From Verrucomicrobiaceae bacterium (lineage in GTDB: Bacteria; Verrucomicrobiota; Verrucomicrobiia; Verrucomicrobiales; Verrucomicrobiaceae), in NCBI GenBank assembly GCA_046346695.1, contig JAXMHS010000004.1:98085-162084 (forward strand): a stretch of DNA of 64,000 bases, given 5' to 3'. Position 1 is the stretch's first letter; the number at the start of each line of letters is the position of its first letter. The translations under genes were made by a program, and so were the position numbers. Below the pieces are notes generated by a model. The model was not told the origin of the DNA. It saw only the letters and a program-made list of their open reading frames with translations, and did no database searches. Shown here one piece after another: positions 25,085 through 34,859 of the stretch.

Positions 25085-25723
25085 ATGCCTGTCTCTTTTC
25101 ACAGCCCTTTTGTCCGCTCATGCCGCAACGCCGTGGCAGTCCTTTGTGCTGCTGCACTTCTGGGATTTGTCCCGGCTGTGTCCCAAGCTTTCGACACGGT
25201 CATTCTGGATCCAGGGCATGGCGCCCACGACCGCGGGGCGGCGATCGGTTATGTGTATGAAAAGCACCTCGCGCTCGACACTGCGCGACGAGTGGAGCAG
25301 TTGCTCAAGAAGGAAGGATTGAAGGTCATCATGTCGCGCAGCCGTGATGTGTTCATTCCGCTCCAAGACCGCTCAGCGCTGGGTAACAGCCGCCGTGGCG
25401 CCATTTTCGTCAGCATTCATTACAACTACAATCGTGGCGGCAGTGGAGCCGGTGCGGAGACCTACTACCACTTTTCCTCCAGCTACATGCTCGCCGCCTA
25501 CATCCAGGCCTATCTGGTGCAGCGCACCCACATGAGCAACCGGGGCGTCAAAAGCGCCAACTTCCACGTCATCCGCGCCACCAACAAAAACCCGGCCGTG
25601 CTGGTCGAATGCGGATTCGTCAGCAACTCCAGCGAACGTGCGCGCATGATGACCGGAGAATTCCGGGCGGGCATTGCCGAGGGCATTGCACAGGGCATAG
25701 TGGCCTACCGCAAATCCAGGTGA
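25085..25723 (+). CDS. N-acetylmuramoyl-L-alanine amidase (Amidase_3)
   Basis: ILDPGHGAHD, EKHLAL, FVSIHYN, PAVLVECGF. Confidence 0.93.
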   Translation: MPVSFHSPFVRSCRNAVAVLCAAALLGFVPAVSQAFDTVILDPGHGAHDRGAAIGYVYEKHLALDTARRVEQLLKKEGLKVIMSRSRDVFIPLQDRSALGNSRRGAIFVSIHYNYNRGGSGAGAETYYHFSSSYMLAAYIQAYLVQRTHMSNRGVKSANFHVIRATNKNPAVLVECGFVSNSSERARMMTGEFRAGIAEGIAQGIVAYRKSR

Positions 25724-25733
25724 ATGGAGTTTC

Positions 25734-27776
25734 TCAAGGTGTGGCCGCAGCCTGCGCTCCGCTGTCAGAAGACGCTGTTTTTTTCCTGCTTTCACTCCAC
25801 GCCAGGAACACGCCATAGGCCAGCAGAACGAGCTGGCTGATCCAGAAGGCATAGATCTTCGGCCACGTTCCGTCCGTGAAGCCGTACGCGTGCAGACCGA
25901 CGCCGAGTTGGTTCACACCGAACCATGAGAAGATCACGATGCAACCCAGCACAAGGTTGCAGCAGTGCAGTCCGACTTCGCGGATGTAACCACCGAGACG
26001 CGCGTGCAGAATGACGAGGCACATGAGCACGATCATCAGCGCGCCATTTTCCTTCGGATCCCAACCCCAGAAACGCCCCCAGCTGTAATTCGCCCAGATG
26101 CCGCCTAAAACGGTGCCCACGAGCGAGAGGAACAAGCCCGCGGCAATGAAACCGTATGCCACACGCGTCATGAACCGCGCCTGATCCGAGCCGGTGGTGA
26201 CCACTTCGCCACCTCGCCTGCCTTGCAGGCTGGAGACAAAGCGCATGAGGAAGTAAAACATCGAGATCAGCGCCGCCACCATGCATGCGGCGTAGCCGAG
26301 ATTGATCATCGGCACATGGGTGGAGAGCCAGAAATTGGTGATCAGCACGGCCTGGAGCTGTTGCATGGTGTCTGTGGCCTCAGATGCCTCGAACTGGATG
26401 GCCAGGAACATGCACGCCGTGCCGCCAACGGCTGCCACCAGCAGTCCCAAGCCGCGCTTCGTAATCCACTCGGCGATCAGCCCGAACAAAGCGCAGGCTG
26501 AGCCGATGAAGATGATTGTCTCGTAGAGCGTCGTGATCGGAGGACGTTGCATGATGATGCAGCGAATCACCACGCCTGTCACTGCAAGCACCGTGGCCAT
26601 AACCAGAAACGTCCAGGCACATGCTCGCGTGATCGTGCCAAACCGGGAGGCGGCCGATACCCACGTAAGCGCCACGCCAACGAAGCCGACAAGGAACAGC
26701 CATTGCGCGTAGAAGAAGTAGTCCGCCTTCATGGAATGGCGTTCCAGGGCGATGAACTGCCCTTCACCGCGCGCTTTCGCAGCGTCCTGAATCTTCGCCA
26801 GCAGACTCTTTGAGGCAGCTTTGAATTTCGCCGCATCAGGCAGAGCCAGATACACATCTTCATAGGCTGCCAGCCAGGCGAGTTGCGCTGCGTCTGCCTC
26901 ATGCTCGCCATTGATGGCTCCGAAGATGATGTCACCGGGCCCGTGCCACACGTCCTCCGCGCCAGGCGCCGGCGGGAACAAACGCAGTTGCTGCTCGGAG
27001 TTGCCGCTCATCATCGCACCAAGCGCAGCTTTCCCAAAGTCGCGGAACCACGGGATCTGCATCGGTGGACCGCCGCTGGAATGAACAGCCTGGGCGAATT
27101 GCTTGAGGCTCTTCGAGAGGCGCACGGGCTTTTCGATGCCTGCGGGCAGTTGATCAACTTTGTCACCCACCGGCGAGCGGATGAAGTCGAAATGACCGGT
27201 GATCATCTCGTAATCGAGGAAGTTCGCGGCGAGCTGGACGATCATGCGTTGCTCCGGCGTCTGCTTCTTCGCGGGAAGTTCGCGATACGTGTTCATCTTC
27301 TCCATCAGCATCTGACGCGCGGGCTCAATCTCAGCAAAAGTGTATTGATCGCGCTTCGCTTTGGCTTTCAGGCCGAGTTCTTCGATCGCGGAGGAATTGT
27401 CCACCTTGAACAAGGGCACGAGCCTGGCGATGTCCGGCCGGAACCAGCTCATGAGAAGCCATTCGGTGGCGCTGAGCTTCACCGGCTTCTCCCCTTCTTT
27501 GACGATGGGCTTCTGCGTGGCGGGATCGACAAGCGGCTTGCCACCCATCTCGCCATTTTCGGTCAGCCAGATGCTCCGGCGTGCGCGAAAACGCAGCAGC
27601 CGGTAGCTGGCCAGATTTTCGAGTGGTTTGATGCGCCCGGATTCCTGCACCGGCATCGCCGCGAAGGTTTCCACGACTTCCTTGTCGCGGAACAGGTCGA
27701 GCGGCGCCAGTTCGGCGGCAGCGGCGAAGCTGGAGGCTCCTGCGAGCACGGCCAGTGTGAAAAGAAGGGTTTTCAT
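25734..27776 (-). CDS. ccsA: Cytochrome c biogenesis protein CcsA (system II) with large N-terminal periplasmic domain
   Basis: GRIKPL, PPITTLYE, WLSTHV, WANYSWGRFWGWDPKE (WWD domain), GLHAYG. Confidence 0.92.
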   Translation of the reverse strand: MKTLLFTLAVLAGASSFAAAAELAPLDLFRDKEVVETFAAMPVQESGRIKPLENLASYRLLRFRARRSIWLTENGEMGGKPLVDPATQKPIVKEGEKPVKLSATEWLLMSWFRPDIARLVPLFKVDNSSAIEELGLKAKAKRDQYTFAEIEPARQMLMEKMNTYRELPAKKQTPEQRMIVQLAANFLDYEMITGHFDFIRSPVGDKVDQLPAGIEKPVRLSKSLKQFAQAVHSSGGPPMQIPWFRDFGKAALGAMMSGNSEQQLRLFPPAPGAEDVWHGPGDIIFGAINGEHEADAAQLAWLAAYEDVYLALPDAAKFKAASKSLLAKIQDAAKARGEGQFIALERHSMKADYFFYAQWLFLVGFVGVALTWVSAASRFGTITRACAWTFLVMATVLAVTGVVIRCIIMQRPPITTLYETIIFIGSACALFGLIAEWITKRGLGLLVAAVGGTACMFLAIQFEASEATDTMQQLQAVLITNFWLSTHVPMINLGYAACMVAALISMFYFLMRFVSSLQGRRGGEVVTTGSDQARFMTRVAYGFIAAGLFLSLVGTVLGGIWANYSWGRFWGWDPKENGALMIVLMCLVILHARLGGYIREVGLHCCNLVLGCIVIFSWFGVNQLGVGLHAYGFTDGTWPKIYAFWISQLVLLAYGVFLAWSESRKKTASSDSGAQAAATP

Positions 27777-27823
27777 GCAAAGGATACGTTGGGTCGGAGT
27801 TCCTCGTGTCAGTTCGTTGGGCA

Positions 27824-29122
27824 TCAAAGCAGCTTCCAGATGGCCAGTCCAAACGCGGCATTGAACGCCGCGATGAGGCCCAGTGAGAACGTCCAGGGAT
27901 TCACCTGAATGTAGCGGGCCAGCATCATGAGGAAATGCAACAGCAAACCTTCGGCGACGATAATGCAGGAGATGAGCGGCCAGTGGTCGGAGGGGTTTTC
28001 CACGATTTGGAAGCCGCTGCTCTTCACACCCGTGCCACTGCGTGTTCCGTCATCAAAGGTTTGTTGGAAGACCGCATAGCCTTCGCTGCGAACGGGCTCG
28101 TTCATCGTAATGACGCGTTTTTCCTCGCGACCGTTTTCCAACTTGGTGACCCAGCTCGTGAAGCGGCGGGCACGCTCGGTGCCCGGATGTTTCTCCTGCT
28201 CTGTTTTGTCGAGCTTCATGGCAAACGGGAGCTTGTAACTGCGGTGAACGAGCGAGATCAGATACTTGTCGTTGCCGACTGTTGCGGTCCATGGTGCGGC
28301 AGCGAACTCCCACAGGATGCCTTTCTGTTCCTCACCGGTCTTTTTGTCCTTCACGATGGCGATGCACGCGCTGGCGAGCTGTTCATCAGCCATCGCGCCA
28401 CCGGACGCATCGAGCGTGTTAAGTTCCTGGATGTAATAACCGTCCACCGCATCGGAGCGGCTGCCCTCGCGGTCACGCTTGGGCTGTGCATGCTGCTTCC
28501 AGCCGGTGATCGTCAGATCGAACGAAAGGCTCTCATGCTTGAAGTTCCTCTTCGCATCCCCGAGTCCTTTGAATTCGGAATCCGCGATCACCAACACTGT
28601 CCGACGTGCTTTCTCGTCCGTCTGGACCTTTTCGATCTCGATCACGCGTTCGTGGAAACTGGAGAACTCGTCGCTCACCTCCCCTTCCCTCAAATTCATG
28701 CTGCCTTCCTTCGCAAAGTGATGGCTCACCGCCCCCGCGGCGATCATGAGCAGGATGGCAAAATGCGAAATCACCACGCCGATGGTGCGCGGTGACTTGC
28801 GGATGCGGATGATGCCGCCGAGCAGCATGTTCACAAACAGGATCGCCATCAGCAGGTAACCGCCTGGGATGATATACAGCGGCAGGGTGACGTCACCGAT
28901 GTCGGCGATCGCCAGTGCTCTCAGGCAGGCCCCGATGTCGATCCGGTCAATGAAGTACGATTCAAAATAGCGCGCCTGGCTCGCGACCAGACCATGTTCG
29001 GCCTGCTCCAACGTGCCCAGGAACGTCATGATCAGCAGCAGTGCCAGCATGACAGCGGCAAGCCCGTAGCTGGAGAGGAAGGCGATGAGGCGCGAAAGTA
29101 AGATGGAAGCGGAAGATGACAT
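27824..29122 (-). CDS. Cytochrome c biogenesis protein ResB/CcsB-like
   Basis: LSSYGLA, LTFLGTLEQ-like segment, HFAILL, LPFAMKL, MNEPVRSEGYAVFQ; stop overlaps the ccsA 5' region. Confidence 0.85.
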   Translation of the reverse strand: MSSSASILLSRLIAFLSSYGLAAVMLALLLIMTFLGTLEQAEHGLVASQARYFESYFIDRIDIGACLRALAIADIGDVTLPLYIIPGGYLLMAILFVNMLLGGIIRIRKSPRTIGVVISHFAILLMIAAGAVSHHFAKEGSMNLREGEVSDEFSSFHERVIEIEKVQTDEKARRTVLVIADSEFKGLGDAKRNFKHESLSFDLTITGWKQHAQPKRDREGSRSDAVDGYYIQELNTLDASGGAMADEQLASACIAIVKDKKTGEEQKGILWEFAAAPWTATVGNDKYLISLVHRSYKLPFAMKLDKTEQEKHPGTERARRFTSWVTKLENGREEKRVITMNEPVRSEGYAVFQQTFDDGTRSGTGVKSSGFQIVENPSDHWPLISCIIVAEGLLLHFLMMLARYIQVNPWTFSLGLIAAFNAAFGLAIWKLL

Positions 29123-29125
29123 GGA

Positions 29126-29243
29126 AATGACGAAATCAGAATGACGAATGATGAAGGAATGACGAAGCACGAATGACGATGAGCGCCTCTTCGGCCTTCG
29201 TCATTGGACATTCATTCGTCATTCTGATTTCTGGTTTCGTCAT
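29126..29243. repeat. GAATGAC/GTCATTC inverted-repeat element (complete copy)
   Basis: Several GAATGAC(GAA) units followed by their reverse complements; fills the whole intergenic space. Confidence 0.8.
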
Positions 29244-29908
29244 TGCTTTGGCAGGTTCGGCTTGATGGACTGGCAGAAGGCATCAAAGGCTGCGGCGTTC
29301 TGCTCCACGAGCCCCTTCGGACCGGTGAGTTTGACAAAAATGGTGGCCTGCTCAGCGGAATGAATGAGGCCGAGCAGGCGATAACCTGTTTTGGCCTGTT
29401 CCGCACCGAAGCCTTTGAAGTCGCCATCGAAGGCCACATACGTCGCCTCGCGATTGAAGAACGGCTTCTTTGGCAGTTTGGCGATTTCGTCAGGTGTGTA
29501 AGCTGCCTGCCCCATCTGCGTGCGCCAGCGGTTCACATTGGCATCCAGACCGCCCGCGGAGCCGGGCATGAGTGAGATGTAGCATTCGCCCTCTTGATTC
29601 GGGCCGAAGCGCAGGTCGAGCAGGCGCATGCCCATCGGATCAGGCGTTGCATTTTCACTCCAACCCTCGGGGACCGTCCACGTGAGCAGTTCACGGAAAT
29701 TCGGGCGCTGTGACTGCTGGTTGTCATCCGCATCATCAAAAAAGCGCGTGGCGCTCGGGATGTCGATGGCCGGCTTGCGTGCGTGGCTGGAAATCTCACG
29801 CGTCTCCGTGATGACAAAATCCTGCTGGCGTCCGCAGGACAGGAGAGTGAGGCTGCATGCGAGCAGCGCACAGCTAGTCGGGGGGGCTTTCATCGAAGGG
29901 GAACGCAT
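29240..29908 (-). CDS. Putative lipoprotein in the ccs operon
   Basis: Lipobox LLSC; WTVPEGW, GGLDANVNRWRTQMG, FVKLTGP. Confidence 0.75.
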   Translation of the reverse strand: MRSPSMKAPPTSCALLACSLTLLSCGRQQDFVITETREISSHARKPAIDIPSATRFFDDADDNQQSQRPNFRELLTWTVPEGWSENATPDPMGMRLLDLRFGPNQEGECYISLMPGSAGGLDANVNRWRTQMGQAAYTPDEIAKLPKKPFFNREATYVAFDGDFKGFGAEQAKTGYRLLGLIHSAEQATIFVKLTGPKGLVEQNAAAFDAFCQSIKPNLPKQ

Positions 29909-30070
29909 GAGAGGAGGGGATGTTTAGCAGCTTCCTTCGTGAGCGCCACGAAGAAGCATGTGCGCGCGGGGGAAAGACGAGCAGCGAAATAGAAGGGGCT
30001 CAGCCTCAGTGGAGCGCAGGCTGGAGACTGAGAACTGAGACACTTCACCACTTCATGCAGTGTCGGCCGA

Positions 30071-32080
30071 TCACGAACCCTTGTGATCCGTGTGGCAGGC
30101 TTTGCAGTTCACGGCAGCCTTGTATTCAGCCACGCCGGCGGCGTCCTTCGCTTGAACTTTTTTCACAGCACCGATCAGAGCCTGGCACTTTTTCACCCAG
30201 GCGGCCTTTTCACCCTTTGGCGGCATGGCGGCGCACATGTCTTGATAAGCTTTCAGGAGCGTTCCGAGTTCCGCATCACTCGCGGTGCCGCCGGAAACCT
30301 TCTTGCACAGCGCGTCATCCGGCTTGTGGTAAGTCTTCATGACCGTCTTGATGACGTCACTTCCACCTGCGGCGGGCTTAGCGTCGGCCTTTTTCGGCTC
30401 TTCCTTCTTCGCAGGAGCAGGCGGAGGCGCGGGCGGTGCGGGCGGCGGAGCGGTCAGCTTGGCGATTTCCGCCTCGCTGAGGCCGACATTGACCTTGAGA
30501 TCAGGACGCTGGCCTTCGAGAGCCTTCGCGCCATTCTGTGTCACGCCGGTCTGCCAGACAAAGAGCTTCTTGAGCCCCTTCGCCCCGGCCAGTTTGGCGA
30601 TTCCGCCATCCGTGACCTTGTTGCCGTAGAGATTGAGGTATTCGAGGTTTTGCAGCGCGGCGAGCTTGGCGAGACCAGCATCACTGAACTTGGTGTTTTC
30701 GAGGTGCAGGCGTTCCAAGTTGGTCATCTTCGCCAAGGAATCGGCCGCGGCATCCGTGATCTGGCTGCGCGCGAGATCAACCCACACGACCTGCTGGGCG
30801 ATGGGCTCCAGCATGGCGAGTTCCTTGTCGCCAAACTTGTCCGCGGCATTGATGACGCCGAGACGAAGCTGCTCGGTGTCCTGCGCCAGCGGCATGAGCG
30901 AGGCGTTCAACGCCTGCATCTTCGCGGTGATTTCGGCCACCTGCTTCTTCTCGGCGTCGGTAAGCGGCTTGGGTTTGGGCTTCTCCACCTTCACGACCGA
31001 GGCTTTCGGCAGGCCTTTGCTCAACATCGCGGCGAGGATGCCCTCGATGGCGGCATCCGGCTTCGCTGCAGCGACGGTCTGTGTGTCCGAGGCGCCGTTC
31101 TTGATCCACCACGTGATGATCTGGCACTCTTCCTTGGTGATCTGCGGCTCGTCGGACGGCGGCATGTGGTCGTCATCATCCTTGGGCAAAAGAACGCGCT
31201 TCAGCATGAGACTGTCGTCCGGCTTGCCAGCTATAACCGTCGTCGCACCGTCGCCACCACCTTTCATGATGGCGGCAAAATCGTGAAGCTGCAGCTTGCC
31301 CTTCTTCTTCTCGACGCCATGACAACTCGTGCACTTCGCTTCCATGATCGGAGCGATGACATCCCGGTAAACGATGGCCTTCGCTGCAATCGCCGCGTCG
31401 AGCTTGCCACCTGCGGCAGGTTTTGCAGCAGGAGCAGCCGGAGCCGCGGGTTTCGCAGGGGCGGTGGCAGGTGCCGGTGCTGCGGCAGGAGCAGCGGCCA
31501 CCACGGCGACAGGCTTCGCATCATCCTCGGCAGTCCAGCCGTTGTTGATGTGGGCGTTGGGCAGTTTGGCCTTCAGGGCGGCCACTCCGGCCTTCGTGAC
31601 ACCACTCTGCCAGAGGTAGAGGGCCTTCAGCTTGCCCATTGAAGCAAGCTTGGCGATTCCAGCGTCAGTGACTTTCGTGTTGTAGAGATTGAGGTATTCC
31701 AACTCGGAGAGGCCCTTGAGGTGATCCAACCCCGCGTCTCCAATGCCCGTGCCTTCGAGGTGCAGTTCCTTGAGACCTTTCATGCCTGCGAGCTTGGCCA
31801 GACCTGCGTCGGTGACCTTCGTGCGGGCGAGATCGAGGGAGGCGATCTTGTCGGCAATGGGCGCAAGTGCATCAAGTCCCGCATCGCCGAATTCCTTCGC
31901 GACATTCAGTGCGGTGAAGCGGTACGCCTTGGCGTCTGCGGCGACCGGCATGAGCGAGGCACCAGTGGCGTTCACCTTTTGCATCGCGGCCTCGACGGCG
32001 GGATCAGCGGCTTTTTTGTCATCGGCAGCATGCGCGGTGAATGCGAGCGCCAGGGCGAGGATGAGGGAGGTAGGTTTCAT
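30071..32080 (-). CDS. Secreted multi-domain c-type cytochrome: LRR - PSCyt1 - LRR - C-terminal heme domain
   Basis: Signal peptide; two homologous LRR blocks (LEYLNLY..KVTD.GIAKL); CTSCH; C-terminal CKACH; Pro/Ala linkers. Confidence 0.88.
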   Translation of the reverse strand: MKPTSLILALALAFTAHAADDKKAADPAVEAAMQKVNATGASLMPVAADAKAYRFTALNVAKEFGDAGLDALAPIADKIASLDLARTKVTDAGLAKLAGMKGLKELHLEGTGIGDAGLDHLKGLSELEYLNLYNTKVTDAGIAKLASMGKLKALYLWQSGVTKAGVAALKAKLPNAHINNGWTAEDDAKPVAVVAAAPAAAPAPATAPAKPAAPAAPAAKPAAGGKLDAAIAAKAIVYRDVIAPIMEAKCTSCHGVEKKKGKLQLHDFAAIMKGGGDGATTVIAGKPDDSLMLKRVLLPKDDDDHMPPSDEPQITKEECQIITWWIKNGASDTQTVAAAKPDAAIEGILAAMLSKGLPKASVVKVEKPKPKPLTDAEKKQVAEITAKMQALNASLMPLAQDTEQLRLGVINAADKFGDKELAMLEPIAQQVVWVDLARSQITDAAADSLAKMTNLERLHLENTKFSDAGLAKLAALQNLEYLNLYGNKVTDGGIAKLAGAKGLKKLFVWQTGVTQNGAKALEGQRPDLKVNVGLSEAEIAKLTAPPPAPPAPPPAPAKKEEPKKADAKPAAGGSDVIKTVMKTYHKPDDALCKKVSGGTASDAELGTLLKAYQDMCAAMPPKGEKAAWVKKCQALIGAVKKVQAKDAAGVAEYKAAVNCKACHTDHKGS

Positions 32081-32158
32081 GAAATCAATGAGCAGAGAGC
32101 GGTGACAAAAAACAAAGTCATCGGAAGAACGACTTTGGACTAAAAGTCGCAAGATGGA

Positions 32159-33319
32159 CTAACCTTTCACGATGCTGTCCACCGTGGGCTTGAGTTCGGG
32201 CGGGAAGGCGGCTTCACTGACCTTTTGCGTGCCACTGGCCCCCTGCTGCACCCACCACTTCAGCAGCTCTATTTCTTCCTTGCTGAGCTGATCCTTGCCT
32301 TCAGGCGGCATGTGTTCTCCCTCATCGTCATCGATGGGAAGCATGATTCGGGTGATGCTCAAGCTTTCCTCCGGCTTGCCTGCGACGAAATTGCTGCCGT
32401 TTTCGCCACCCTTCATCGCCAGGTCGTAGGTGTCCATGCGCAGGTCGCCCTTTGATTTCTCCTCGTTGTGGCACTTGTTGCACTTGGCGTCGAGAATTGG
32501 AAGAATCACATGCTGGAAGACGAGCTTGTCATCCCCGCCGGTTGCCGTGGAAGGCGAGCCTATCTGTGGGTTCGTGCCAGGCGGTGTATTCCCGGTGACC
32601 TTCGGCTCCACTTTGGGTGTTGCTTTCGGTTCAGGCTTGGGTGGTTCAGGAGTGACGACTGGTGTTTCTGGCGCAGGCTCGGGCTTTTCCACCAGATTGA
32701 GCATAAACTTTTCCATGGCGACCATCTTCTCCTTCATGAAGGGCGGAGCATGGTCGATGAGAAATTTGCTCCCGTGGCTGATGTTGCCGCCAAAGTGGGC
32801 ACCCAAGCCCAGGATACCGAAGCTCAGGAAATACAGCGCACGGTAGGCAGTGAGCAGTTCGAAGCTGCCTCGGCCCATCGCGGTGAGGCGCACTATCAAC
32901 GCCAGCAGCACCCCCACGGTGCCAATGAGGCCCATCGTCTGATGCAGCGTGAAGTTGCCGCCATCGTAACCGCCTTCGCGGGAAAGCATGATGCCCGCCA
33001 TCACTGCCAGCACCGCGCCAATCGCGCCCACCAGCAATATCAGCAGCGAGGAGCTTCCGTATTTATCCTCGCCCCGCCGGGTGCTGCAAAGAAGCTCAAA
33101 AAAGCAAAGCAAGCCCAGCACACCCACAGGAAGGTGCAGAAAGATTGGGTGGAAACGCCCGATAAACAGCACCATTTGCGACGGCTCAACGTCAGGTGCC
33201 TTGTAGAGCGGCGGGAAAATCAGCAGGCCGAGCACAAAGGCTCCAATGAGCAACATTGTGACTATCCAGGCGGGAGTGAGAGACGGAGGTTCGGCAGAAT
33301 CACGCTCGGGCGATGACAT
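32159..33319 (-). CDS. Membrane protein (DUF2231-like) fused to a PSCyt1 cytochrome c domain
   Basis: IGRFHPIFLHLPVG, HQTMG, GAHFGGNISHG, CNKCH, HMPPEGK, LKWWVQQGA. Confidence 0.85.
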   Translation of the reverse strand: MSSPERDSAEPPSLTPAWIVTMLLIGAFVLGLLIFPPLYKAPDVEPSQMVLFIGRFHPIFLHLPVGVLGLLCFFELLCSTRRGEDKYGSSSLLILLVGAIGAVLAVMAGIMLSREGGYDGGNFTLHQTMGLIGTVGVLLALIVRLTAMGRGSFELLTAYRALYFLSFGILGLGAHFGGNISHGSKFLIDHAPPFMKEKMVAMEKFMLNLVEKPEPAPETPVVTPEPPKPEPKATPKVEPKVTGNTPPGTNPQIGSPSTATGGDDKLVFQHVILPILDAKCNKCHNEEKSKGDLRMDTYDLAMKGGENGSNFVAGKPEESLSITRIMLPIDDDEGEHMPPEGKDQLSKEEIELLKWWVQQGASGTQKVSEAAFPPELKPTVDSIVKG

Positions 33320-33467
33320 GAGATGGAGGGGTTGGGGGAATGTCGCTGCTAATAACGCCGATTCAGTCCAATATTCATCAGGAACCTGATGGTCGTTTCT
33401 GCCTTGGTTTTGGCTTCATCTCTGATCGGCGGCCAGCCGTATCTTGTGCCTTCCTTCATTATTTTTC

Positions 33468-34859
33468 ATGCCCCGCACTGTCCTGCACTGGTTCCGCCGC
33501 GATCTCCGCCTCACCGACAACACCGCGCTGCATCACGCCACGAAGGACGCGGAGCAGGTCATGCCGGTCTATGTCCTGAGCGATTGGAAAAACAGCCACG
33601 GCTGGACCGGCCCGAACCGCCAGCAGTTCCTCTGTGGCAACCTCGAATCCCTCGCGAAAAACCTCGAAACCATCAGCAGCCGCCTCATCATTCGCTGTGG
33701 GAAGGCCGATGCCGAACTGGAGCGCCTCGTTCGCGAGACGCAGGCTGGAGCGATCTACTTCAACCGCGACTACGATCCCTTTGGCCGCGCCATGGAAAAT
33801 AAGATCGCCGCGCTTTGCACGCGTCTCGGCATCGAGTGCCATGCATTCGACGACAGCGTCATGCACGCGCCCGAAACCGTGCTCACCGGCACCGGTCAGC
33901 CGTATCGCGTTTACACGCCCTACTCGAAGAACTGGCTCAATCTCGACAAGGCGGCCCCCCTGCCCCGTGTGGCCAACTTGGGACCGAAAGCCGGTGAAAA
34001 AATCACCAGCCTGCCCCTTCCCACGCTCGCGCATTGGAATCTCCCTGAGCCCACGGCGAACATCGTCGCATCAGGCGAACGTGCCGCCCGCGACCGCATG
34101 AAGCACTTCATCGAAGGCGGCATCCTCCAAGGCTACACCGCGAATCGCAACACGCCGGTGGGTCAAACGACCTCCCTGCTCAGCCAGGATCTGCGCTACG
34201 GCCTCATCGGCATCCGCGAGCTGTATGCGCGATGCGCCGCCCTCGAAAAAGCCAGCACCTACATCAAGGAACTCGCGTGGCGGGAGTTCTACTTCGCCAT
34301 CCTGTGGTTCTACCCGGAGGTCTTCGAGCATGAGTTCGCTCCCGACTGGCGCGGCCTGTCCTGGCCCGGCACCGAGGCCGACTTCCAGCGCTGGGCCACC
34401 GGCACCACCGGCTTTCCCATCGTCGATGCTGGCATGCGCCAGCTCTTGCAGACCGGACTCATGCACAACCGCCTCCGCATGATCACCGCCATGTTCCTGA
34501 CCAAGGATCTGCACTGCGACTGGCGCATGGGCGAGGCCTTCTTCATGCAGCAACTCGTCGATGGCGAAAACGCCAGCAACAACGGCGGCTGGCAATGGTC
34601 CGCCGGCACCGGCGCCGATGCTGCTCCTTACTTCCGCATCCAGAATCCCTGGCTGCAAAGCGCCCGCTTCGATCCCGCGGGCACCTACATCAAGCAATGG
34701 GTGCCCGAACTCAAGGACGTCCCCGCCCCGCTCCTCCACGAGCCACCCAAGCCCGGTCTCCCGCTCGCCCAAGGTTACCCGCTCCCCATGGTCGATCACC
34801 ACACCGAACGCGACCGTTGCCTCGCCATCTTCGCGAAGCACAAGGCGGAGCGGAGTTGA
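33468..34859 (+). CDS. phrB: Deoxyribodipyrimidine photolyase
   Basis: WFRRDLRLTDN, YRVYTPY, TSLLSQDLRYG, ELAWREF, TGFPIVDAGMRQL, MHNRLRM, NNGGWQWSAG. Confidence 0.95.
   Translation: MPRTVLHWFRRDLRLTDNTALHHATKDAEQVMPVYVLSDWKNSHGWTGPNRQQFLCGNLESLAKNLETISSRLIIRCGKADAELERLVRETQAGAIYFNRDYDPFGRAMENKIAALCTRLGIECHAFDDSVMHAPETVLTGTGQPYRVYTPYSKNWLNLDKAAPLPRVANLGPKAGEKITSLPLPTLAHWNLPEPTANIVASGERAARDRMKHFIEGGILQGYTANRNTPVGQTTSLLSQDLRYGLIGIRELYARCAALEKASTYIKELAWREFYFAILWFYPEVFEHEFAPDWRGLSWPGTEADFQRWATGTTGFPIVDAGMRQLLQTGLMHNRLRMITAMFLTKDLHCDWRMGEAFFMQQLVDGENASNNGGWQWSAGTGADAAPYFRIQNPWLQSARFDPAGTYIKQWVPELKDVPAPLLHEPPKPGLPLAQGYPLPMVDHHTERDRCLAIFAKHKAERS

Follow-up and report, generated by a model that had tools for sequence, protein, structure and literature searches.

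The window, a 64,000-nt stretch of contig JAXMHS010000004.1 (assembly GCA_046346695.1) from a Verrucomicrobiaceae bacterium, carries at 25734-33319 a row of five co-oriented minus-strand open reading frames (ORFs), g1 to g5. Two cytochrome genes, one of them encoding leucine-rich repeats (LRRs), stand ahead of a lipoprotein gene and the genes resB and ccsA of System II, a pathway for the maturation of c-type cytochromes. All five ORFs lie where a preliminary description of the row had placed them. The genome with the row is a Prosthecobacter (6.47 Mb, 8 contigs, 95.8% complete), and the homologues bear Prosthecobacter names. In the order of transcription, the row reads as follows.

32159..33319, minus strand: g1, 386-aa inner-membrane cytochrome with DUF2231 and PSCyt1 domains (Pfam PF09990, PF07635)
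32081..32158, minus strand: g1-g2 spacer, 78 nt, in frame with both genes (sequence)
30071..32080, minus strand: g2, 669-aa secreted LRR-PSCyt1-LRR-helical cytochrome (Pfam, internal duplication, AlphaFold 2 [AF2] model, alignment A1)
29240..29908, minus strand: g3, 222-aa lipoprotein with a PsbP/LpqN/DcrB-like domain (AF2, Foldseek, synteny)
27824..29170, minus strand: g4, ResB/CcsB, System II membrane protein (PF05140)
25734..27827, minus strand: g5, CcsA with a long periplasmic N terminus (PF01578, WWD motif)

The favored reading, held at a probability of about 0.6, is that the row juxtaposes two modules: module A, the housekeeping set g3-resB-ccsA, and, preceding it, module B, a lineage-specific cytochrome split between g1 and g2. 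The two are probably co-transcribed; a sigma-70 promoter scan of the locus gave matches no better than those in shuffles. The comparison set comprises 40 relatives, 20 extracted regions, and 80 loci retrieved with the g3 profile (73 of them informative for the position of ResB). A phylum-wide sample adds 201 Verrucomicrobiota genomes, and 24 with a g1-type transmembrane (TM) domain were re-searched for CcsA. Relatives with g3 identity of at least 70% are called close.

The g3-ResB-CcsA core

The invariant core of the row is g3-ResB-CcsA. In 72 of the 73 informative loci, the gene right after g3 is resB, counting as adjacent one locus (L106) where the two genes overlap by 3 nt; L110 is the sole true exception. 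These loci include metagenome-assembled genomes (MAGs) labelled Planctomycetota, Hydrogenedentota, and Nitrospirales. Among the 201 Verrucomicrobiota genomes, g3 is found in 62. Where g3 and CcsA could both be located, in 23 genomes, all but one (22) have them on one strand, with g3 upstream by 2-3 kb. The core is intact in two Prosthecobacter genomes (G010 and G023) that carry g1-g2 on another contig. That the lipoprotein g3 is the conserved partner of ResB-CcsA had been overlooked in the preliminary description.

The two membrane components are recognizable at the family level. ResB (g4) matches PF05140 at 56.7 bits (cut-off 24.6), likely starts at the ATG at 29122, and is immediately upstream of g5, the two genes overlapping by 4 nt. 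The g5 product, which likely starts at the ATG at 27776, matches PF01578 at 84.3 bits (cut-off 29.9) and TIGR03144 at 128.7 bits, under the cut-off of 187.6, so its membership in CcsA is family-level rather than equivalog-level. Its C-terminal part is an eight-TM haem-handling domain with the Trp-rich WWD haem-handling motif, which fits the CcsA consensus WAxx(A/S)WGx(F/Y)WxWDxKE (PMC4222556).

26049-26096, minus strand: g5 WWD motif WANYSWGRFWGWDPKE, residues 578-593

The N-terminal part of g5 is a periplasmic extension of roughly 370 aa (residues 1-370) that starts with a signal peptide of its own and matches no family. From Verrucomicrobiota to Planctomycetota and Hydrogenedentota, all g3-ResB-CcsA loci share this extension, at 25-45% identity, and it may co-vary with g3.

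A whole-genome search finds a single ResB, g4, and two PF01578 genes. The second of these, a 297-aa gene at C2:504220-505113 (L002 1489-2382), was rejected as a cytochrome synthase: it is directly upstream of hemA and HemX-like. No CcmC- or CcmF-type match of System I is found in the 95.8%-complete genome, and System II is therefore its only pathway; DsbD/CcdA is encoded on another contig. Genome-wide, 84 PSCyt1 matches exceed the cut-off, of which only two are in this locus. Since so many PSCyt1 domains share one ResB and one true CcsA, and System I is missing, ccsBA is the cell's sole, housekeeping maturation system, serving the 84 PSCyt1 domains and other cytochromes.

The third member of the core, g3, has a lipobox, LLSC, with Cys25 at 29834-29836. 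The diverse alignment A3 shows invariant residues at P80, W83, R95, C109, G119, A123, N124, R127, W128, Q131, G180, F191, F208, and S214, and the signature of the family is E-C-Y...G.AGG.EANVNRWR.QMG. Two parts of it can be placed on the DNA.

29582-29587, minus strand: g3 Glu108-Cys109, invariant (alignment)
29522-29539, minus strand: g3 NVNRWR, within ANVNRWR (alignment)

Neither g3 itself nor the members of its alignment have a significant Pfam match (the best among the members is E=0.0088, for one of them), g3 has no NCBIfam match, and it has no sequence relative in the PDB. Its AF2 model has a predicted local distance difference test (pLDDT) score of 84.5, with a core above 90. Searched with Foldseek against the PDB, the model gives 29 matches at E<=1e-3, among them CyanoP (2lnj, E=1.7e-5), PsbP, LpqN, MTC28, Tsi3, and DcrB, with probability 1.0. 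On this model, g3 is predicted to have a PsbP-like fold. Proteins of this fold, such as PsbP, LpqN, and DcrB, commonly help to assemble membrane complexes or serve them as adaptors. The lipoprotein g3 is a candidate for an unrecognized accessory of this form of System II.

The family is large. A search of 1.84 billion representatives with the g3 profile retrieves 10,918 proteins at E<=1e-3, of which 8,340 reach E<=1e-10; many contain the domain two or three times. In Planctomycetota and Hydrogenedentota MAGs, the lipoprotein encoded ahead of ResB often contains the g3 domain twice in tandem, within 370-400 aa (L099, L104, L105, L106, L108, L111, and L115), and three-domain versions of 480-600 aa occur among the cluster representatives. 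A g3-like gene is not mentioned in the paper on System II of anammox bacteria (PMC4222556), and a literature search likewise found none.

The split cytochrome g1/g2

The g1 protein combines a membrane domain with a cytochrome domain of the PSCyt1 ("Planctomycete cytochrome c") type.

About 32765-33271, minus strand: g1 DUF2231 five-TM domain (PF09990)
About 32210-32524, minus strand: g1 PSCyt1 domain, periplasmic (PF07635), with a Pro-rich linker between it and DUF2231
32468-32482, minus strand: g1 CNKCH (sequence)
32303-32314, minus strand: g1 HMPP (sequence)

The match to DUF2231 is a marginal pass (29.3 bits, cut-off 26.4), and that to PSCyt1 stands at 52.7 bits (cut-off 22). PF09990 is precomputed on 120 of 120 among the orthologues listed. 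A literature search on DUF2231 yields a single incidental mention. In an alignment of divergent g1 homologues, His57, His62, His126, His175, and His182 of the membrane domain are invariant, as are the CxxCH, the downstream M-P-P, and other residues of PSCyt1. The Met of M-P-P is a candidate haem ligand. The five histidines sit at the periplasmic ends of TM2, TM4, and TM5, a placement that follows from the positive-inside rule and from the need for the c-haem domain to be periplasmic. The arrangement is more suggestive of a site for a cofactor at the outer surface of the membrane than of a two-haem wire running through it.

The g2 ORF spans 30071-32152, but translation probably begins at the ATG at 32080, so that the protein opens with a signal peptide. 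The mature protein would then alternate LRR blocks with cytochrome domains.

32027-32080, minus strand: g2 signal peptide, MKPTSLILALALAFTAHA
About 31535-32005, minus strand: g2 LRR block 1 (Pfam)
About 31088-31378, minus strand: g2 PSCyt1 domain (PF07635)
31319-31333, minus strand: g2 CTSCH (sequence)
31157-31168, minus strand: g2 HMPP (sequence)
About 30479-30961, minus strand: g2 LRR block 2 (Pfam), followed by a Pro/Ala linker
30074-30367, minus strand: g2 C-terminal helical cytochrome domain, 98 aa (AF2, alignment A1)
30092-30106, minus strand: g2 CKACH, seven residues from the C terminus

The PSCyt1 domain of g2 matches PF07635 at 49.2 bits (cut-off 22), and LRR_4, LRR_6, and LRR_8 exceed their cut-offs in block 2 and, searched alone, in block 1. 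The two LRR blocks are 47% identical over 171 aa (E=6e-48), and the PSCyt1 domains of g1 and g2 are 46% identical over 106 aa (E=7e-37). The repeat extends to the entire cyt-LRR unit: residues 241-559 of g2 align with the g1 cytochrome plus the first LRR block of g2 at 39.6% identity over 351 aa (E=5e-64).

Elsewhere in the genome, a secreted PSCyt1-LRR paralogue of about 320 aa without a membrane anchor is encoded at C2:1429057-1430064, and the g2-type LRR also terminates two Ser/Thr kinases (C2:~1255000 and C2:~724000). Given this paralogue and the two kinases, the LRR type is a commonly reused module in the lineage.

The C-terminal CKACH domain has a separate origin. It is present in 15 of 23 scorable congeneric orthologues and absent in the other 8, and so is a recent fusion. 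A stand-alone secreted paralogue of 121 aa (contig C5:415499-415948), found in nearly all congeners, is 67% identical to the domain and is its likely donor. The paralogue has no Pfam match, and one source labels it "cytochrome c556." Within the fused domain, Met10 and the C-terminal CxxCH are invariant (alignment A1), and the AF2 model is an all-helical bundle with a pLDDT of 94.7. Its best Foldseek neighbors in the PDB are b562 (BRIL fusions), cytochrome c', engineered cb562, and Kuenenia Kusta0087/88, all of them weak (E 0.2-1.5, TM-score 0.4-0.57). Sequence searches of the domain give nothing significant in Pfam or NCBIfam and no match in the PDB, and PF01322 and PF07361 do not match it even at E<=10. 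The model points to a domain that may work like a His/Met bundle of the c556/b562 type; membership in the class II family is not established. The likeness to class II put forward in the preliminary description thus holds weakly: the helical model, the b562/c' neighbors, and the name of the paralogue speak for it, and the E values above 0.2 and the lack of PF01322 against it.

The division between g1 and g2 is clean. The two share one reading frame and are parted by one TAG (32159-32161) and 26 sense codons, and the spacer at 32081-32158 has no stop beyond that TAG. In orthologues the spacer always has one or two stops and g2 its own signal peptide, and the frames differ in several species. Since every orthologue has at least one stop and a signal peptide of its own, g1 and g2 are two genes. 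The same evidence rules out read-through at the TAG, or a pseudogene, both of which were considered.

Other lineages carry module B in fewer pieces or with fewer units. In Phragmitibacter (L091), TM-cyt-LRR-cyt-LRR is a single open frame of 960 aa. The genome G159 has its g1-type TM match within an open frame of 1028 aa, and its module B is probably fused too. Family f5 (L029, L030) has TM-cyt-LRR-cyt, families f4 and f6 and the MAGs L101 and L102 have TM-cyt-LRR, and L028 has TM-cyt only. In Prosthecobacter and Brevifollis, module B never occurs as one protein: one or two stops and then a new signal peptide part it behind the first cytochrome. Module B was thus formerly one polypeptide, which underwent gene fission in Prosthecobacter; this implies that g1 and g2 still act together. 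The preliminary description had seen the two LRR blocks as internal duplicates and had read TM-(cyt-LRR)-(cyt-LRR)-cyt across g1 and g2 as a single order that a new signal peptide interrupts. The domains are as stated there, the PSCyt1 pair and the whole cyt-LRR unit prove to be repeated as well, and the single-protein forms in Phragmitibacter, in other families, and probably in G159 bear out the split.

The cluster is bounded on one side by a divergent DNA photolyase gene (33444-34859, plus strand) and on the other by a convergent N-acetylmuramoyl-L-alanine amidase-like gene (25085-25723, plus strand), both assigned from translation only. Long plus-strand ORFs over the genes, such as 30083-31642, were rejected as shadow frames of high-GC DNA; the minus-strand genes have family matches and conserved orthologues.

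Linkage of the modules and competing readings

Module B is a Verrucomicrobiales-specific family, DUF2231-PSCyt1-LRR(-PSCyt1-LRR), and its tie to module A weakens with distance. The gene just before g3 belongs to module B in 44 of the 45 close relatives, in 2 of 5 intermediate loci, and in 2 of 13 distant ones. The g1-type TM domain occurs in 25 of the 201 Verrucomicrobiota genomes. Among the 24 re-searched, it adjoins CcsA only in G159 and in a weak, reversed case, G041, where a weak DUF2231-like ORF (C17:25059-27004, E=5.6e-7) lies directly downstream of CcsA, the opposite of the g1-g5 order. The adjacency is kept within the genus, and the linkage of g1/g2 to ccsBA is lineage-restricted.

On the favored reading of a housekeeping core preceded by a lineage-specific cytochrome, CcsA, through its WWD domain, and ResB are predicted to export haem and attach it by thioether ligation to CxxCH motifs. 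The lipoprotein g3 would assist from the periplasm; its most likely role is that of chaperone or adaptor to the apocytochrome, or else to the large domains that ResB and CcsA extend into that compartment. Module B was once DUF2231 TM-PSCyt1-LRR-PSCyt1-LRR. Fission divided it between g1, which kept the membrane anchor and one cytochrome domain, and g2, which is secreted as LRR-cytochrome-LRR; a later fusion, in this species, gave g2 its c556/b562-like haem domain. On the outer side of the membrane, g1 would hold a redox cofactor on its five periplasm-facing histidines and a His/Met c-haem. By docking through its LRRs onto g1 or onto partners, g2 could extend a short periplasmic electron relay of two more c-haems.

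Several observations weigh against this picture. A true transmembrane wire is unlikely, as the invariant histidines of g1 are all on one face of the membrane. The TM domain of g1 has nothing significant in sequence-level searches of Pfam, NCBIfam, and the PDB beyond the marginal DUF2231 match, and the DUF2231 family has no solved relative. PSCyt1 proteins have no demonstrated function (PMC5615132). A terminator-like scan finds a 10-bp hairpin followed by TTTTTT at 32113-32137 (minus strand) in the g1-g2 spacer. It may be a partial terminator that tunes the g1:g2 stoichiometry; as a conserved terminator or attenuator it was rejected, for the hairpin is not kept in six orthologous spacers. Finally, module B persists beside module A in at least two families and could work in maturation.

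The alternative that survives best is that the neighborhood is a coincidence. Module B would then be an envelope sensor or adhesin-like protein, its haem sensing redox or gas and its LRRs binding a non-redox ligand, that was inserted upstream of the core in an ancestor of Verrucomicrobiaceae. The patchy linkage outside one family fits such an origin, as does the LRR type shared with Ser/Thr kinases of this genome, and PSCyt1 usually stands at the N terminus of large proteins with several domains, whose role is unknown (PMC3542564, PMC5615132). Set against this, the adjacency is still seen in several lineages (L027, L028, L101, L102) as g3 identity falls from 82% to about 37%, the haem ligand residues are invariant, and the haem domains have been multiplied rather than lost. 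Coincidence is judged unlikely.

A second alternative makes all five genes one maturation machine, with g1 and g2 as System II accessories that, for example, keep haem or apocytochrome thiols reduced or use their LRRs to hold apocytochromes at CcsBA. DUF2231-PSCyt1(-LRR) genes do stand right before the core in Prosthecobacter, Brevifollis, Phragmitibacter, G159, family f4 (L027, L028), L101, and L102; the G041 match directly adjoins CcsA on its other side; and the invariant histidines of g1 face the periplasm, where haem emerges. A shared machine sits poorly, however, with the distribution of its parts, the g1-type TM domain being present in 25 of 201 genomes and CcsA in all 24 re-searched. 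In 22 of those 24, and also in two Prosthecobacter species, the domain is encoded away from CcsA. Its architecture also varies freely, with one or two cyt-LRR units and with or without the c556-like domain, and a secreted PSCyt1-LRR paralogue exists elsewhere in the genome. This role for module B seems quite improbable.

Co-orientation, short spacers, and an adjacency kept within the genus speak for the view of the preliminary description that ccsBA is dedicated to the two LRR-cytochromes of its own operon. This view can be set aside almost entirely: ccsA and resB are the genome's only System II pair (ResB and functional CcsA occur once each, System I is missing, and 84 PSCyt1 domains as well as other cytochromes need maturation), the outcome which that description had itself named as telling against it, and most lineages have g3-ResB-CcsA without g1/g2. 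The operon had been over-read and is not a private maturation system.

A bolder extension of the two-module reading, put forward tentatively and at somewhat less than even odds, is that g3 represents an unrecognized fifth component of System II in Verrucomicrobiota, Planctomycetota, Hydrogenedentota, and Nitrospirota. It would be paired with the CcsA of long N terminus and perhaps serve as an apocytochrome or haem chaperone through its Glu-Cys and ANVNRWR surface, and in Verrucomicrobiaceae its operon may have recruited the DUF2231-PSCyt1-LRR proteins as partners, in redox or as adaptors. Of all parts of the row, g3 is the most novel and the one most open to test. With about 10,900 representatives, almost always before ResB-CcsA in several phyla, its family would be a concrete candidate for a new System II factor.

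Comparison with known systems

The cytochromes of module B were thought undescribed, which they are only in part. Fusions of PSCyt1 to interaction domains such as WD40 and Big_2, of unknown function, are known from the literature (PMC3542564, PMC5615132). Examples are the PSCyt1/PSCyt2/PSD1 and PSCyt1/WD40 multidomain proteins (Studholme 2004 via PMC3542564; PMC5615132). Public records already catalogue the g1 orthologues as "c-type cytochrome domain-containing protein" (PF07635+PF09990) or name them "uncharacterized membrane protein." Like the published PSCyt1 proteins, which are abundant in genomes of the Planctomycetes-Verrucomicrobia-Chlamydiae (PVC) group, g1/g2 couple protein-protein interaction modules to a haem domain in which an MPP follows the CxxCH. 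Unlike them, g1/g2 are anchored by the five-TM DUF2231 domain, alternate with LRR blocks, lack PSCyt2, PSD1, and DUF1501, and are split in two genes. PVC bacteria carry dozens of PSCyt1 cytochromes, and this small, TM-anchored, LRR-interleaved form offers a tractable entry to the roles of both PSCyt1 and DUF2231. The clean gene fission predicts a stable two-protein g1-g2 complex.

The CKACH domain, as modeled, compares with the class II/b562 group (c', c556, Kusta0087/88) in being small and all-helical, with its CxxCH near the C terminus and a first-helix Met as in His/Met c556 and b562. It differs in having no PF01322 or PF07361 match, a length of only about 98 aa, an extra short helix, and its fusion to an LRR protein.

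The g3 model shares the alpha-beta-alpha sandwich of the PsbP/CyanoP/LpqN/DcrB/Mog1 fold (Foldseek probability 1.0, E about 1e-5), and, like CyanoP, LpqN, and DcrB, g3 is a lipoprotein facing the periplasm. It shows no relationship to them in sequence (8-15% identity), has an E-C and ANVNRWR signature of its own, is often tandem, and is tied to ResB-CcsA.

System II is usually described as CcsB/CcsA with a thiol-reduction arm. Compared with the set of CcsB/ResB, CcsA/ResC, CcdA/DsbD, and ResA/CcsX, the present row adds the CcsA extension of roughly 370 aa and a lipoprotein of predicted PsbP fold before ResB. The core remains that of System II in Bacillus, cyanobacteria, and anammox Planctomycetes (PMC4222556), with ResB and CcsA likewise adjacent and the WWD consensus present, and with DsbD/CcdA here encoded elsewhere.

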